DNA of 64,000 nt, from positions 182 through 64,181 of the forward strand of contig JAHFNB010000004.1 of the NCBI GenBank assembly GCA_023267595.1. Direction: 5' to 3'. This document shows positions 2,779 to 50,531 of this stretch, in pieces (the first letter of the stretch is position 1; every line of letters begins with the position of its first letter). Under the pieces are notes generated by a model that had not been told where the DNA came from, did no database searches, and was given only the letters and a program-made list of their open reading frames with translations. Origin of the DNA: a bacterium (GTDB lineage Bacteria > Patescibacteriota > Minisyncoccia > Phycocordibacterales > UBA5272). The translations under genes and the position numbers were made by a program.

Positions 2779-3879
2779 TTATTTTAAGAGGTCAAATAAT
2801 GACCCACCACTTGCGAGGATAAAAAGTGAGACAGAAGAAAGGACAGGTAACAGAGAAAGGAAATAAAAAGTTTTTATTTTTTCCTTATTCTCTAGTGACC
2901 ATACAACGAAACCTATTAATGCAAATGGGACAATAGCCACATATCCTATATATAACACACGAGTGAGGAACATTGGCCAAATGAGTACTGGTAATGTTGC
3001 AAGCAATAGTGAACCACCCAAGATATAATTTTCTTTTGTGATAGATGTCTTTTTACGTAGGAGAGCATAGACCAAATATAAACAATATACCCATAAAAGA
3101 TTAAATGTAGATGCCTCAGTGAAAAAGAAATAGAAGAAGGTATGGTAGGTACTTTCAAATGTTTCTTTATTATAGAAATACCAATTGATAAAAGAAATGC
3201 CAGTTCCATTTCCATGGAACAATGAATATAAAAACAATGCTTGTAGAACAATAAAAGGAATACTTATGGTTAGAATATGTTTAAGGTATTCTTTTTTCTT
3301 TGTGTATACAAACATACTAAGCATATAGACACCTGCAAAAAATAATCCTAACACTCCAGTTTCTTTACAGAGTGATCCTAAGAATCCAAGGATTGAGGAG
3401 AATACGATGAGAAATGTACTTTGTTTACGTAAACCAATGAGAAATGTAGTGATGGTTGCAAGTGTAAAAAACCACCCAGAAATATCAGTAAGAAGTACAA
3501 GTCCAAATTTAAGAAGAGGATATCCAGTAGCAATCCATGTTGTCCCAATGATAGCAGACTTTTCTTTGAATCCTAGTTCTCGTAAAAAGAAGTACGATAA
3601 TATAATAATGCCAAAATAAAAGAATATATTGATAACAAGTATTGCCTGATGTTCTGTAAATAACGGCGTGAGATATGATCCAAGTATTCCGTAGAGCGGT
3701 TTAAAAGAACGTTTTTCTATATCTGGTGTTATTGCTATCTCATGATTTGCATAACGAATTTGGTCGACATAGACAACAGTATCTGTTTGTATATTAAGAA
3801 GACCATTACGATTAAAAATAAAACCAAGAGTTGCAACTCCTACAAGAATGATAATTGATAGAGCATGCTTGGTCTTCAT
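2779..3879 (-). CDS. polytopic integral membrane protein (GT-C-like glycosyltransferase or oligosaccharide-polymerase candidate)
   Basis: About 10 predicted hydrophobic helices with no soluble domain. It sits in a glycan-synthesis neighbourhood next to a GtrA-like gene. Confidence 0.45.
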   Translation of the reverse strand: MKTKHALSIIILVGVATLGFIFNRNGLLNIQTDTVVYVDQIRYANHEIAITPDIEKRSFKPLYGILGSYLTPLFTEHQAILVINIFFYFGIIILSYFFLRELGFKEKSAIIGTTWIATGYPLLKFGLVLLTDISGWFFTLATITTFLIGLRKQSTFLIVFSSILGFLGSLCKETGVLGLFFAGVYMLSMFVYTKKKEYLKHILTISIPFIVLQALFLYSLFHGNGTGISFINWYFYNKETFESTYHTFFYFFFTEASTFNLLWVYCLYLVYALLRKKTSITKENYILGGSLLLATLPVLIWPMFLTRVLYIGYVAIVPFALIGFVVWSLENKEKIKTFYFLSLLPVLSSVSLFILASGGSLFDLLK

Positions 3880-3881
3880 AA

Positions 3882-4286
3882 TTAGTGAAAGATAAATTTT
3901 TTACGAACCCAAAAGTTGTAGATGAGTATAATACAGGTCGATATCATTTTTGAAAAAAGATAGTATACGGCAAGTTTTTCTGTAAAAAACCAGATGAGAG
4001 ATTGGTTAAGTGCGAGGCCTGTGAGACTCACAAAAACTATGAGCCAGTATTCTTTGTGAATATTTGCAATTTTTGACCCTGTAAAGACGAAATATTTTGC
4101 AAGAATGTAATTGATATTTAGCCCAATAATAAATGCAATTGCTGCAGAAGTTAAGTAGTGAATATGTGCATATTCTGTAAGAGTAAAAAGTGTACCGAAA
4201 TCAAATAAAAAAGCCGTACCACCAACGAGGAGATATTTGAAAAACTGTAGTGCTAGTTTCTCATGCTTTTTAAGCAGGGTTATCAT
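3882..4286 (-). CDS. GtrA-family small membrane protein (polysaccharide synthesis/translocation accessory)
   Basis: About 130 aa, four TM helices, N-terminal motif FFKYLLVGGTAFLFDFG typical of the GtrA family. Confidence 0.65.
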   Translation of the reverse strand: MITLLKKHEKLALQFFKYLLVGGTAFLFDFGTLFTLTEYAHIHYLTSAAIAFIIGLNINYILAKYFVFTGSKIANIHKEYWLIVFVSLTGLALNQSLIWFFTEKLAVYYLFSKMISTCIILIYNFWVRKKFIFH

Positions 4287-40817: not shown

Positions 40818-40905
40818 AGGTTATAGAGAAGAGAAAATAGGGAGAATACTAGCACCTGTTGAGTCTAATATACCCTCTCTATTCTTCTTTCTTAGATGCT
40901 AATTT

Positions 40906-40916
40906 TGTGGTATAAT
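40906..40916 (+). promoter_or_regulatory. extended -10 promoter TGgTATAAT for uvrA
   Basis: tgtggtataat read directly. It lies inside the ORF-track start of uvrA, which argues for the internal start at 40938. Confidence 0.45.
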
Positions 40917-40937
40917 CCATCAGTTAAGCCGTTATTT

Positions 40938-43556
40938 ATGTCTTTAAAGAAACAAGAATCACATAATAAACATTTAGAAAGTATCATTGTTCGTGGTGCG
41001 CGAACTCATAATCTCAAAAATATTACTGTTGAGATGCCGCGTCACACAATGATAGTTTTTACTGGTCTTTCAGGATCAGGGAAGTCATCTCTTGCATTTG
41101 ATACTATTTTTGCCGAAGGACAACGTCGTTATGTAGAATCTCTATCTGCATATGCACGTCAATTTTTGAATCAAATGCAAAAGCCAGATGTTGATGAAAT
41201 AGTTGGCCTTTCTCCTGCAATTTCAATAGATCAAAAATCTGCTGGAAGAAATCCTCGATCAACAGTTGCAACGATTACAGAAATATATGATTATCTCCGT
41301 GTGCTTTATGCACGTGTAGGTAAACCATATTGTGTAGATTGTGGAGCAAAAATACAAAAACTTTCTAATGAGGAAATCATTCATTTTATTTTAGATAAAG
41401 TAAAGGCAGTTGATTTTAAGAAAATAAAGAAAGAAATGCTTGGTGTGGAGTTCTCTCATGCAGAATTACATATTATGGCGCCACTTGTGCGTGGACGAAA
41501 AGGAGAGCATTATCAAATGCTTTATGACATGTTAGGAAAAGGGTACACCGAAGCAGTTGTAGATGGTGAGAGAAAATCTCTTCGTGAACAGATAGTACTT
41601 TCAAAGACTAAGAAACATGAGATTTCTATAATCGTGGACTCTATTGCGTTGGATGATTTTCGTTTAAAAGCAAATGAAAAAGATGCAATGATTCGTCTTT
41701 CAGAAGCAATTGAACGAGCATTACATGAATCAAATGGATTACTTGAAATAGAAATTTTAGGTGAGAAGACTATTATGAGTAATAAGTTTTCATGTGCAAA
41801 TTGTGGTTTTTCTTTTCCAGAAATTGAACCTCGTCTTTTTTCTTTTAACTCACCCTATGGTGCGTGTCCTACGTGTAATGGTCTTGGTACAAAATATTTT
41901 GGGGGATTAGATGCGTGTGATGATTGTCACGGGAAGCGTCTTAGACCAGAAGCACTTCATGTATATCTTGATGATAAAGAAAAAATAAATATTGTAGATA
42001 TTACTGCACTTTCTATTAAAGATGCGCAGGCATATTTTGCACGTATCCCTCTTACAAAAAAAGAACAAGAGATTGCGTCTGTGGTGATTAAAGAAATAGA
42101 GTCTCGTCTTATATTTATGCTTGATGTTGGACTTGATTATCTTTCACTTAACCGTAAAGCAGATACATTATCTGGTGGAGAAGCACAACGTATACGCCTT
42201 GCATCACAACTGGGATCAAAACTTGTAGGAGCACTCTATGTCCTTGATGAACCAACTATTGGTCTTCATCAACGTGATAATGATAGATTAATCAAGACAC
42301 TTCTTCATCTGCGTGACATGGGAAATACTATTATCATAGTAGAGCATGATGAAGATACTATTTATGCATCAGATTATATTGTTGATATTGGTCCAAAAGC
42401 AGGAGTACATGGAGGAGAAGTTGTTGTATCTGGATATTTAGATGAATTATTAACTGCTCCAAAAAATAAATCCGGCAGTGTAACACTTTCATACCTTCGT
42501 GGAGAAAAAGAGATACCTGTTCCTGCTCGTCGTGAACAAGATAAGGGAACTATTAGAATTACTGGTGGAAATATCTTTAATATTAAGGATATGAATGTAT
42601 CACTTCCACTTGGAAAATTAACGGCAATTACAGGAGTATCAGGATCTGGTAAGAGTTCATTTATGTATGAAATTTTACACAGAAATCTTCTCGCACGTTT
42701 AGAACGTCGTCATAGAAGTGCACAGGTACACAATGTGACTTCAATTACAGGAACTGAGTATCTTTCACGTGTGGTATTGATTGATCAAGGTGCAATTGGT
42801 CGCACACCACGTAGTAATCCTGCGACATACACTGGCGCATGGACTCATATTCGAGATTTATTTGCTGAATCTGAAGAAGCACGTATTCGTGGATGGAAGG
42901 CATCACGTTTTTCTTTCAATGTAAAAGGTGGACGATGTGAAGCATGTCAGGGAAATGGTGAAATTGCAGTAGAGATGCACTTTTTACCAACAGTGTATGT
43001 GCAGTGTGATGTATGTCAGGGAAAGCGATTCATGAAAGAGACACTTGAAGTGAAGTGGAAAGGAAAAAGTATTTACGATGTGTTACGTATGACTGTCGAA
43101 GAGTCACTTACTTTTTTCCAAGACATTCCTGCCGTTTATGATCGAGTAAAAACACTTGATGATGTAGGACTTGGATATCTTGAACTGGGACAATCTGCAA
43201 CGACACTCTCTGGTGGGGAAGCACAACGTGTAAAAATTTCTTCAGAACTTTATCGTCCTCATGTAGAAAAAACAATATATCTTTTAGATGAACCGTCTAT
43301 CGGGCTTCATTATGAAGATATAGCAAAGTTAATTGAGATATTAAATAAACTTGTTGATAAAGGAAATACGGTTGTACTTATTGAACACAATCTCGATATT
43401 GTAAAAAATGCGGACTATATTATCGATATTGGTCCTGAAGGTGGTGTAGGGGGTGGAAATATTGTTGCAACAGGTACTCCAGAGACAGTTGCAGGAAATG
43501 TAAAGTCGTATACTGGTCAGTATCTCAAAAAAGTTTTAAAGAAAAGTAAGAAATAG
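40938..43556 (+). CDS. uvrA: excinuclease ABC subunit A
   Basis: Two ABC ATPase modules (GLSGSGKSSLAFDT, LSGGEAQR x2) and the zinc-finger Cys pairs. Confidence 0.95.
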   Translation: MSLKKQESHNKHLESIIVRGARTHNLKNITVEMPRHTMIVFTGLSGSGKSSLAFDTIFAEGQRRYVESLSAYARQFLNQMQKPDVDEIVGLSPAISIDQKSAGRNPRSTVATITEIYDYLRVLYARVGKPYCVDCGAKIQKLSNEEIIHFILDKVKAVDFKKIKKEMLGVEFSHAELHIMAPLVRGRKGEHYQMLYDMLGKGYTEAVVDGERKSLREQIVLSKTKKHEISIIVDSIALDDFRLKANEKDAMIRLSEAIERALHESNGLLEIEILGEKTIMSNKFSCANCGFSFPEIEPRLFSFNSPYGACPTCNGLGTKYFGGLDACDDCHGKRLRPEALHVYLDDKEKINIVDITALSIKDAQAYFARIPLTKKEQEIASVVIKEIESRLIFMLDVGLDYLSLNRKADTLSGGEAQRIRLASQLGSKLVGALYVLDEPTIGLHQRDNDRLIKTLLHLRDMGNTIIIVEHDEDTIYASDYIVDIGPKAGVHGGEVVVSGYLDELLTAPKNKSGSVTLSYLRGEKEIPVPARREQDKGTIRITGGNIFNIKDMNVSLPLGKLTAITGVSGSGKSSFMYEILHRNLLARLERRHRSAQVHNVTSITGTEYLSRVVLIDQGAIGRTPRSNPATYTGAWTHIRDLFAESEEARIRGWKASRFSFNVKGGRCEACQGNGEIAVEMHFLPTVYVQCDVCQGKRFMKETLEVKWKGKSIYDVLRMTVEESLTFFQDIPAVYDRVKTLDDVGLGYLELGQSATTLSGGEAQRVKISSELYRPHVEKTIYLLDEPSIGLHYEDIAKLIEILNKLVDKGNTVVLIEHNLDIVKNADYIIDIGPEGGVGGGNIVATGTPETVAGNVKSYTGQYLKKVLKKSKK

Positions 43557-43574
43557 TTGTTTTGGTAATAAAAA

Positions 43575-43603
43575 AGGCGATGCCGTAGCATCGCCTTTCC
43601 TGC
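43575..43603 (+). terminator. hairpin aggcgatgc-cgta-gcatcgcct after uvrA
   Basis: 9-bp perfect stem preceded by an A-run, with a weak T-tract after. Confidence 0.5.
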
Positions 43604-43609
43604 AGTCTT

Positions 43610-43930
43610 TTATAACTGAGGGTTGTTTTGTCTTTCTGTACCCTCTTGTATTGGCACATACCCCCCGTAGTGCACCCTCGAGTGGCATGCCGGACGAGTA
43701 CTCTCAACCTTAGTACCATCAGGGAGTACCCGAACTTCGGGAGGCAAGGGTTTATCCGGCCTCTCGCAGTTTTGACAGTCGTGCCTTCCGTGCTTACACG
43801 GCATGATTCTCCTCCTCCTGTATCTGTTCAATTACATGTGGTACAAGACTCTCCACCCCAAGAGGTGATGGGTCATTTCTTGTTGGCCAAGGCCAACGAA
43901 GCCTTATGCCAAATGCTTGTGCAGATGTCG
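43610..43930. ncRNA. GC-rich structured non-coding island (candidate housekeeping or other structured RNA; identity unresolved). An alternative reading is a 64-aa Cys-rich ORF with a strong SD on the minus strand, 43610-43804.
   Basis: Marked GC enrichment over the flanks. Several local hairpins (ccgtg-ctta-cacgg, cccg-aactt-cggg) and a palindrome gttggcc-aa-ggccaac. The minus strand carries aggaggaggagaatcATG. Confidence 0.3.
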
Positions 43931-44061
43931 TAATAATGTGTTGAATATTCACAGTAAAACCTTTTTCTAGAACTTTTTTAAAGAACTTCTTCCCTTTTCA
44001 CATCTAGCAATTTGGTTGCCCATAAGTTGCCAAAGTGAGTATTTATAGTACAATACATTTT

Positions 44062-45276
44062 ATGAAAAAGCAAGCCTTGTCCACACTTTCACTCCCAGAT
44101 TTTCCGGGGGTCTATTTTTTTCGTGATAAAGAAGGGAATGTTTTATATATTGGAAAAGCAACATCACTTAAGGATAGAGTCAGAAGTTATTTCAATCCTG
44201 ATTTAATGAAACAACGTGGATTACGTCTTGTAACCATGGTAACGATTGCAGATACTGTTACCTATCAAAAAACAGAAAGTGTTCTCGAGGCATTACTTCT
44301 AGAAAGTAAATTTATCAAAGAATATAATCCACCATATAATGCAAAAGAAAAAGATAATAAAAGTTTTACCTGTGTTGTGATTACCAAAGAAAAGTTTCCA
44401 CGAGTATTAACCATGCGGATACGAGATTACGAGAAACGATTTTCTAAAAAAGATGTTTTGAAGGTATATGGTCCATTTGCTTCTCTTACCCAATTGCGAG
44501 AAGCAATGAAAATTATACGTAGAATGTTTCCTTATCGAGATAGATGTGAACTACATCAACTGAAGCCTTGTTTTAATGCACAGATACGATTATGCCCAGG
44601 AGTATGTGTTGGGTTAATTTCTGAAGTGGAATATAAAAGACATATAGACAATATTAAGAAATTATTTGAAGGTAAAAGGACAGAAATAAAGAAAAGCCTG
44701 GAAAAAGAAATGCAGGATTATGCAAAAAAACATTTATTTGAAAAGGCAGGAACCGTGAGAAATACACTCTTTGCACTTGATCATATAAAAGACATAGGAT
44801 TAATTAAAGAAGAGGATATATTGTCTTTTAAGAATAATGATTTTCGTATCGAAGGCTATGACGTGGCACATATTTCAGGAAGTTCTCGGGTAGGAGTAAT
44901 GACAGTTATTGTCGGTAGGGAAAAAGAAAAGGATGAGTATAGAAAGTTTAAACTTCCAGAACATATTAATGATGACTATGCAGGATTACGAGAAATACTC
45001 ATTCGTCGCTTTTCTCATAAAGAATGGCGTTATCCAGATCTTGTTGTTATAGATGGTGGTGTGGCACACAAACAAACTGCGGAAAAGGTTCTTGCACACT
45101 TAGGACTACTTATCCCTGTTGTTTCTGTAGTGAAAGATGAACGTCATAAACCAAAGGACATACTGGGAGATAAAGTACATGTGGATTACCATAAAAAGGA
45201 AATACTTTTATCAAATTCTGAGGCACATAGATTTGCTATTGGGTATCATAAAACATTACGAAATAAGGTCGTATAA
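44062..45276 (+). CDS. uvrC: excinuclease ABC subunit C, compact form lacking the C-terminal (HhH)2 domain
   Basis: GIY-YIG (GVYFFRDKEGNVLYIGKATSLKDRVRSYF), a UVR-like segment, and the EAHRFAIGYHKTLR endonuclease motif at the extreme C-terminus. Confidence 0.8.
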   Translation: MKKQALSTLSLPDFPGVYFFRDKEGNVLYIGKATSLKDRVRSYFNPDLMKQRGLRLVTMVTIADTVTYQKTESVLEALLLESKFIKEYNPPYNAKEKDNKSFTCVVITKEKFPRVLTMRIRDYEKRFSKKDVLKVYGPFASLTQLREAMKIIRRMFPYRDRCELHQLKPCFNAQIRLCPGVCVGLISEVEYKRHIDNIKKLFEGKRTEIKKSLEKEMQDYAKKHLFEKAGTVRNTLFALDHIKDIGLIKEEDILSFKNNDFRIEGYDVAHISGSSRVGVMTVIVGREKEKDEYRKFKLPEHINDDYAGLREILIRRFSHKEWRYPDLVVIDGGVAHKQTAEKVLAHLGLLIPVVSVVKDERHKPKDILGDKVHVDYHKKEILLSNSEAHRFAIGYHKTLRNKVV

Positions 45277-50258: not shown

Positions 50259-50330
50259 GGAGGGTATCCTTTAACGAGAACAATTTATTACATCTTATAA
50301 CTACCAAAAGTCTATGTCAATTTTACCAAT

Positions 50331-50355
50331 AAAAAAGGGCAGGAAGTTCCTGCCC
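50331..50355 (-). terminator. intrinsic terminator gggcagg-aactt-cctgccc plus U6 at the 3' end of the leader, about 65 nt before the 49917-50258 gene
   Basis: 7-bp GC stem followed by tttttt on the minus strand. Confidence 0.75.
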
Positions 50356-50525
50356 TTGTCGGGGTATGACCGACTTTACAAGTGCGGTCGATTTCTAGCT
50401 GCGAGATTGTGGCGGTGACTTGCTATCCGCCGCCTCTGACTGATTTGACCAAGCCTCTTGCGAGGCAGGGCACGGAAACAGGGGTTACGTCTTCTTTTCG
50501 ACATTTTACCTCCGTGGTTGTTCTA
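50356..50525 (-). ncRNA. GC-rich structured leader / candidate riboswitch or small RNA, with an embedded 42-codon Arg-rich ORF (about 50376-50504) carrying a GGAGG SD
   Basis: Consensus promoter upstream and terminator downstream. Hairpins gaccg...cggtc and ggcgg...ccgcc. The 5' segment guuuccgugcccugcc can pair with the 5' half of the terminator, which would be an antiterminator-like arrangement. Confidence 0.4.
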
Positions 50526-50531
50526 GATAAG

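Follow-up and report, generated by a model that had tools for sequence, protein, structure and literature searches.

Small zinc-finger proteins of haloarchaea are the nearest described counterparts of the gene family reported here. The C(P)XCG µ-proteins of Haloferax volcanii are zinc-finger proteins of less than about 70 amino acids (aa) with a four-cysteine fold (PMC11241148), and Halobacterium salinarum has Brz, a small regulator of the zinc-finger type whose gene lies in the intergenic region next to its target (PMC2253796). For small archaeal four-cysteine (Cys4) proteins, the expected mode of action is binding to nucleic acid or to a partner protein. The locus described here lies in a 64,000-nt stretch of a patescibacterial genome (GenBank assembly GCA_023267595.1, contig JAHFNB010000004.1, positions 182 to 64,181; hereafter the window), where a GC-rich island occupies the gap between uvrA and uvrC. 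A preliminary description of this island, made from the sequence alone, had considered a divergent housekeeping RNA, a horizontally acquired fragment, or a small zinc-ribbon protein gene. With a probability of roughly 0.85, the best explanation is a translationally coupled minus-strand operon of two small open reading frames (ORFs), here called ORF-A and ORF-B, in which ORF-B represents a Cys4 family and which was inserted between uvrA and uvrC.

ORF-B resembles the haloarchaeal zinc fingers in being small and in having four cysteines, and the brz gene is likewise intergenic. Unlike their two CxxC knuckles, however, ORF-B carries C-x2-6-C-x2-5-C followed by a lone P-x-C-[HFY]; there is no sequence similarity, and the organisms belong to different domains of life. 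With classical zinc ribbons and rubredoxin-like proteins it shares four conserved cysteines around a predicted β-hairpin, but these are arranged 3+1 rather than 2+2, Pfam and PDB yield no match, and the structural model is too low in confidence for a fold comparison. WhiB-like [4Fe-4S] proteins, which occur in Actinobacteria, have the motif C-Xn-C-X2-C-X5-C. They too are small and have four cysteines, and one ORF-B subgroup shows C-x2-C-x5-C (e.g., L010, L005, L006, and L036; such handles denote the related loci compared here). In ORF-B, however, the lone cysteine is C-terminal, whereas that of WhiB is N-terminal; moreover, there is no Pfam Whib match, the phylum is another, and the G[VI]WGG turn is absent.

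Coding Content of the GC-Rich Island

The compositional anomaly noted in the preliminary description is genuine. The window has a mean GC content of ~36.6% (270-nt windows across the 64 kb: mean 0.366, standard deviation 0.037, or about 0.04), whereas 200-nt windows within the island (43601–43900) reach 0.515–0.535 against 0.31–0.40 in the flanks. This is the GC maximum of the entire 64 kb, and only 0.06% of the 270-nt windows attain 0.52 or more. The codons are atypical as well, since GC at third codon positions (GC3) is 0.52 in ORF-B and 0.34 in ORF-A versus 0.18–0.25 in uvrA, uvrC, and nrd; the GC-richness of the island thus stems from codon choice as well as from amino-acid content. The same GC3 excess appears in nearly all relatives, both in the ORF-A/ORF-B gene set and in an unrelated set, termed class 2, that occupies the site in other lineages. 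The hairpins and palindromes reported earlier are also present (ccgtg-ctta-cacgg at 43788–43801, gttggcc-aa-ggccaac at ~43884–43899, gcatgc, and ctcgag), as are the minus-strand Shine-Dalgarno sequence (SD) and the ATG that open a 64-aa ORF, here ORF-B. What that account overlooked was ORF-A, the partner gene upstream, together with the terminator.

Taken from its sequence features, the island very probably is a protein-coding bicistron on the minus strand. ORF-B, which was also called by gene callers (P0001), is preceded by the string aggaggaggagaatcATG, composed of its SD and its ATG (43804–43802); this is the only tandem AGGAGGAGG located directly upstream of any start codon in the window. 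Its start lies within the end of ORF-A, an arrangement that implies translational coupling. According to the proposed mechanism, ORF-A would be translated from its GTG, its last codons would hold the SD and ATG of ORF-B, and coupled translation would deliver ORF-B in a fixed ratio with ORF-A. Both genes would belong to an independent transcription unit wedged between uvrA and uvrC, its transcript being ended by a hairpin and U-run just beyond the uvrA stop. This terminator begins 12 nt past the ORF-B stop and spans 11–42 nt past the uvrA stop, and its placement beside both stops means that it probably ends both convergent transcripts, that of uvrA and that of ORF-A/ORF-B. Similar sites, each a hairpin with a U-run, stand downstream of the cassette in at least 13 of 28 relatives. 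A promoter and terminator consensus scanner found no minus-strand promoter, and it did not call the hairpin terminator either. The individual features are collected in Table 1.

Table 1. Features of the uvrA–uvrC gap, its flanking genes, and a second GC-rich island in the window.
Feature	Coordinates	Strand	Description
uvrA	40896..43556	+	Flanks the island; identity confirmed by Pfam
Intrinsic terminator AAAGGCGAUGC-UACG-GCAUCGCCUUU then UUUAUU	43567..43598	−	11–12-bp hairpin in folds
ORF-B	43610..43804	−	64 aa; four cysteines (C3, C10, C13, C40); mildly basic; start MPCKHGRHDCQNCERPDKP
Plus-strand ORF	43628..43933	+	101 aa; starts with TTG; oriented like uvrA and uvrC
5-bp hairpin CCGUG-UAAG-CACGG	43788..43801	−	Directly 3′ of the ORF-B AUG; ORF-A stop UAA in the loop; present in minimum-free-energy folds
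11-nt ORF-A/ORF-B overlap ATGCCGTGTAA	43794..43804	−	ORF-B ATG inside the end of ORF-A (...AAT CAT GCC GTG TAA)
ORF-A	43794..43952	−	52 aa; GTG start; acidic, net charge −3, isoelectric point (pI) 5.4; sequence MNIQHIITTSAQAFGIRLRWPWPTRNDPSPLGVESLVPHVIEQIQEEENHAV
Shine-Dalgarno sequence AGGAGGAGGAG of ORF-B	43809..43819	−	Inside the ORF-A codons for Q-E-E-E
Weak Shine-Dalgarno sequence AAAGG of ORF-A	43960..43964	−	7 nt 5′ of the GTG; relatives have clearer SDs there
Motif AAGTTCTTTAAAAA	43975..43988	−	Upstream of ORF-A; candidate control or 5′ untranslated region (5′-UTR) element
uvrC	44062..45276	+	Flanks the island; identity confirmed by Pfam; 404 aa
Second GC-rich island	50330..50530		~0.50 GC, in a 345-nt gap before a ddl-like gene
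Hairpin and T-run terminator	50335..50358		After the Arg-rich ORF
Arg-rich ORF	50376..50504	−	42 aa; opened by GGAGGT-AAA-ATG; MSKRRRNPCFRALPRKRLGQISQRRRIASHRHNLAARNRPHL

Four loci (L002, L007, L008, and L019) repeat the motif seen upstream of ORF-A, 20–45 nt 5′ of their first cassette gene, and variants stand in L006, L012, L015, and L029, regardless of cassette type. Its form AAGTTCTTTA(A/C)AAA was likewise observed before different cassette types and may be a common operator or 5′-UTR element. Charge is a further regularity of the encoded proteins, with a median pI of 5.1 for ORF-A, 8.4 for ORF-B, and 9.8 for class 2.

The same island had been read as a structured non-coding RNA, whether a divergent RNase P, signal recognition particle (SRP), 6S, tmRNA, or 5S RNA or a new one, whose ORFs would be incidental. 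In AT-rich genomes a high GC content typically marks structural RNAs, and the 396-nt stretch that includes the terminator hairpin does have low folding z-scores (minus strand, −4.6; plus strand, −4.3). Once the terminator hairpin is removed, however, the z-score of the coding part (43610–43952, minus strand) is only −1.56, with 4 of 100 shuffles folding equally well, so the island shows no excess folding and can no longer be called structured or hairpin-dense. One palindrome, gttggccaaggccaac / GTTGGCCTTGGCCAAC, consists of the codons for R-W-P-W-P in ORF-A, a peptide kept in relative L002. By the same z-score, RNA structure fails as an explanation of the raised GC3. Rfam 15, run over the full window at gathering score, returned only tRNAs and no match in the island; at E ≤ 10, a 561-nt region gave only sub-threshold matches centred on the terminator hairpin (10–21 bits against gathering scores of 38–84). 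ARAGORN detected no tmRNA, and no Rfam model lent support to the loop-E-like strings mentioned earlier. Sequence comparison is also at odds with an RNA: blastn against 37 syntenic loci gave no nucleotide match in the gap except at its uvrC-proximal end, yet in these relatives the reading frame persists, together with its start, its SD, and the four cysteines, and substitutions among homologues cluster at the synonymous positions of the frame on the minus strand. The structured-RNA reading is largely refuted, and we regard it as very improbable.

Conservation and Selection in Syntenic Relatives

Related loci were gathered through uvrC, 37 of them from GTDB genomes and 26 from metagenomes, because a search of 5.8 billion clustered proteins with ORF-B matched only itself. 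The closest relatives of the window are metagenome-assembled genomes labelled Candidatus Paceibacterota, Nomurabacteria, or Parcubacteria (Patescibacteria, or candidate phyla radiation, CPR), and the window sequence itself is also present as ENA metagenome contig ERZ27279942 (k141_7566441). About 50 related Paceibacterota/Nomurabacteria contigs retain the order uvrA, gap, uvrC. In each relative whose uvrC is 70–88% identical, the gap measures 430–900 nt (1.7 kb in one) and has a GC peak of 0.42–0.68; its DNA is unalignable between relatives except for ~40–90 nt adjoining uvrC.

Despite the lack of alignable nucleotides, an ORF-B homologue with its ATG and SD is found on the minus strand of the gap in 28 loci, a count that includes some contigs fetched twice. 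An alignment of 17 syntenic sequences (A1) shows 15–40% identity, with C10, C13, and C40 invariant and C3 kept in at least 90% as aligned. A hidden Markov model (HMM) of these 17 sequences, searched against the six-frame ORFs of the window and of all loci, matched only in the gap and on the same strand. It also detected the hold-out ORF-Bs of L044 (2e-13), L052 (3e-7), L053 (1e-5), and L056 (1e-3), and it revealed no paralogues elsewhere in the sampled contigs, so that ORF-B is single-copy there and fixed in its locus.

In most loci, ORF-B is preceded by an ORF-A homologue of 44–80 aa with an ATG and an SD. It could nevertheless be argued that only ORF-B is a gene and that the upstream 150 nt form a 5′ leader or cis-regulatory RNA. 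The GTG start and weak SD of ORF-A in the window would suit such a leader, as would its poor conservation, since an alignment of 19 members (A2) retains one invariant Gly, in [FYL]-G-[VIMLA]-[GE]. Several relatives, moreover, have ORF-B without ORF-A (L005/L039, L021, L022, L033, and L052). These points are outweighed by the conserved coding anatomy. Overlaps of 4–14 nt between the end of ORF-A and the start of ORF-B recur in L002, L006, L010, L016, L018, and L036, and most relatives have, close to the C-terminus of ORF-A, a His whose CAT codon belongs to the C-ATG-N of the ORF-B start. The window protein is 49% identical to its ATG-started counterpart at the same position in L002, with RWPWP and GVES..PH in common. 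The ratio of nonsynonymous to synonymous substitution rates (dN/dS) of ORF-A is 0.19 for L006/L041 and 0.51 for L026/L053, and Rfam offers no cis-regulatory match. A leader or cis-regulatory element is accordingly judged improbable. ORF-A also occurs without ORF-B in L024 and is paired with a class-2 gene in L027.

Selection was estimated by the Nei-Gojobori method on alignable homologue pairs rather than on the window copy, because the searches recovered no close relative for the window ORFs. For ORF-B, dN/dS is 0.28 (L026/L053), and class 2 gives 0.29–0.39 in four pairs. The annotated frame has the lowest ratio of nonsynonymous to synonymous differences per site (pN/pS) among the six frames and contains no stops; only one other frame mimics this low value, as expected, namely the antisense one whose third codon positions coincide with those of the annotated frame. 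Protein-level conservation and a synonymous excess, the signature that the preliminary description had named as incompatible with an RNA, are therefore both found in the relatives.

These comparisons also bear on the 101-aa plus-strand ORF, which covers the island in the direction of uvrA and uvrC and might be taken for the real gene, the more so as several relatives have long plus-strand ORFs too. It has no SD, starts with TTG, and matches nothing in Pfam or NCBIfam. Where it overlaps ORF-B, its codons are those of ORF-B reverse-complemented in register, so it stays open simply because ORF-B is devoid of TTA, CTA, and TCA codons. Stops interrupt all antisense frames of the five pairs tested, with the sole exception of frame 1 in L013/L014. 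This ORF is almost certainly not a gene.

Taken together with the anatomy of the unit, the conserved reading frames favour the coupled ORF-A/ORF-B operon, and its products can be placed only in general terms. Neither ORF-A nor ORF-B has a match in Pfam, NCBIfam, PADLOC, PHROGs, or PDB sequences, and none of the 17 ORF-B members has a Pfam match. The profile of 17 sequences retrieved only four members among ~15 billion proteins, one of them named "hypothetical protein", and HMMER over 1.84 billion representatives returned the same four and one spurious repeat protein. Literature searches yielded nothing on a cassette locus between uvrA and uvrC. Judged by sequence, ORF-B is a previously unannotated, clade-restricted family of a familiar general kind. 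Three of its cysteines lie in the first ~13 residues and one follows ~25 residues later within P-x-C-[HFY], with a predicted β-hairpin between. A Cys4 metal site is a reasonable prediction, if a guarded one. The four cysteines would hold one metal centre, most likely Zn2+, with an Fe-S cluster as the alternative, and this centre would give the otherwise minimal and mildly basic protein the fold of a small finger, with nucleic acid or another protein as its binding partner. An accessory or regulatory role through such binding is a tentative suggestion, and ORF-A may be the acidic partner of ORF-B. The part of the preliminary description that proposed a small zinc-ribbon gene holds insofar as a conserved gene for a small four-cysteine protein is present, but the classical zinc-ribbon designation does not.

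Several observations weigh against this interpretation. The cysteines of ORF-B are grouped 3+1, unlike the CxxC...CxxC of classical zinc ribbons, and its AlphaFold2 (AF2) model, built from four sequences, has a predicted local distance difference test score (pLDDT) of 53 and contains only a β-hairpin at residues 23–35, between the cysteine groups; the model is a poor one. An obligate complex of the two proteins is unsupported because each gene occurs without the other in some relatives. A metagenome scan with ORF-B peptides gave no close relative of the window's ORFs. Finally, the GC3 of ORF-B is odd for a weakly constrained resident gene when set against that of its neighbours; a possible source is biased gene conversion at a site prone to recombination.

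Probable Insertion History and Alternative Occupants of the Site

In outgroups whose uvrC is ~50% identical, uvrA and uvrC are separated by only 33–82 nt, no insert is present, and uvrC follows directly behind uvrA with a normal SD. The unit would thus have been inserted into an ancestral uvrA–uvrC pair, splitting the two genes, after which uvrC would have gained its own, apparently leaderless, promoter. The ORF-B family is confined to the uvrA–uvrC locus of one Paceibacterota/Nomurabacteria clade, an unrelated basic protein taking its place in some lineages.

Rates of change differ strongly between the cassette and its flanks. Between the window and its nearest relative, L002, uvrA has a dS of 1.27 and a dN of 0.033 (97% aa identity) and uvrC a dS of 1.61 and a dN of 0.078, whereas dS is saturated in both cassette genes and dN reaches 0.54 in ORF-A and 0.98 in ORF-B. 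The rate at which the cassette proteins change is a large fraction of the neutral one (~0.2–0.5) and much above that of the flanking genes. A recent wholesale replacement of the cassette between the window and L002 was considered and is not required, the flanking dS being saturated at 1.3–1.6 and the cassette dN (0.5–1.0) lower. In close pairs, cassette dS is of the same order as uvrC dS (0.78/0.61, 0.45/0.52, and 0.82/1.29), which points to inheritance in place.

About one-third of the relatives carry, at the same site and on the same strand, a basic protein of 92–167 aa that forms one divergent family, class 2, with a β-rich core and a C-terminal ...R-x-x-L-x-x-A-[LF]-x-x-L helix. It is found in L004, L007, L008, L013–L015, L017, L020, L025, L027, L029, L037, and L042 and further in L048, L049, L051, L054, L055, and L060. 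Class 2 likewise has no match in Pfam, NCBIfam, PADLOC, PHROGs, or PDB sequences; its AF2 model has a pLDDT of 61, and Foldseek against PDB gave only matches with E > 0.1, weakly PH-like, which were treated as uninformative. An N-terminal module common to class 2 and ORF-A was tried and rejected by hhalign; class 2 is unrelated to ORF-A or ORF-B. On a neighbour-joining tree of uvrC the class 2 and ORF-A/ORF-B sets are interspersed, which indicates that replacements have occurred.

This alternation raises the question of whether the unit is a conflict-type or selfish cassette (toxin-antitoxin, addiction, defence, or moron-like) at a recombination hotspot, exchanged between lineages, an explanation compatible with the coding anatomy. 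Like type II toxin-antitoxin systems, the unit comprises two small, overlapping, fast-evolving genes, the first acidic and the second basic. Phage morons are insertions of unusual composition between conserved genes, each an autonomous unit of promoter, gene, and terminator. The cassette resembles them in being self-contained, with its own SD and terminator, in its atypical GC (GC3 in nearly all relatives), and in its position, since it lies on the opposite strand and is flanked by two conserved genes that adjoin each other in outgroups. The differences are nonetheless substantial. No homology to toxin-antitoxin or defence models was found in PADLOC, Pfam, NCBIfam, or PHROGs. ORF-A and ORF-B each occur alone, unlike an obligate toxin-antitoxin pair, and the locus is fixed and single-copy, without paralogues elsewhere in the sampled contigs. 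Unlike morons, the cassette is chromosomal and vertically inherited within the clade, and searches of phages (blastn), plasmids (tblastn), and IMG/VR viral contigs found no relatives. The dS of close pairs fits a cassette inherited in place, and the comparison with L002 needs no replacement. On this balance, a conflict-type cassette is unlikely, though it retains some weight.

A broader form of the same idea holds that the gap is a long-lived polymorphic cassette site at which at least two unrelated gene sets have been swapped by recombination through the conserved flanks and kept by diversifying selection (e.g., for defence, addiction, or host interaction in episymbionts), the raised GC3 being the footprint of biased gene conversion at a hotspot. 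We hold this, too, to be a doubtful but serious proposal. A horizontally acquired fragment, as suggested earlier, is not demonstrated: the GC3 is atypical and the gene sets do alternate, but the searches found no phage, plasmid, or viral relatives, and close pairs co-diverge with their flanks.

Further observations concern the site itself. In L020, the 1.7-kb gap contains, in addition to a class-2 gene, a 273-aa ORF with an N-terminal hydrophobic segment (3384–4205, minus strand), which suggests that the uvrA–uvrC site can take further insertions. In the cassette-bearing clade, uvrC appears leaderless (44027–44064 in the window; ~30 loci). Throughout this clade a conserved uvrC promoter, TTGC(A/C)A...TA(T/G)TACAATA, ends 7–8 nt before the ATG. 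In most relatives its −10 element falls within ATTGTACAAT, a palindrome that could function on either strand. The encoded UvrC of the window is short and, according to Pfam, comprises a GIY-YIG domain, a weak UVR motif, and an RNase-H-like endonuclease domain, with no C-terminal helix-hairpin-helix.

Elsewhere in the window, the second GC-rich island listed in Table 1 has a fold z-score of −3.9, and neither Rfam nor Pfam matches it. It may encode a small RNA or a further small basic protein that has escaped annotation.

Implications for CPR Genomes

The coupled ORF-A/ORF-B operon removes a candidate unknown structured RNA and illustrates that a GC-rich intergenic island in the AT-rich genomes of CPR bacteria can encode small proteins in an operon. 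It also defines two families of small proteins without previous annotation, those of ORF-A and of the Cys4 protein ORF-B, and a lineage-specific insertion is documented in which the uvrA–uvrC pair was apparently split and uvrC left with its own promoter. The novelty, which resides in the unannotated families, the alternating cassette site, and the raised GC3, is moderate, and the finding as it stands is modest and clade-restricted. If the site were in fact a hotspot of polymorphic cassettes that serve in conflict, it would provide a small, tractable example in organisms that are almost unstudied for such systems.

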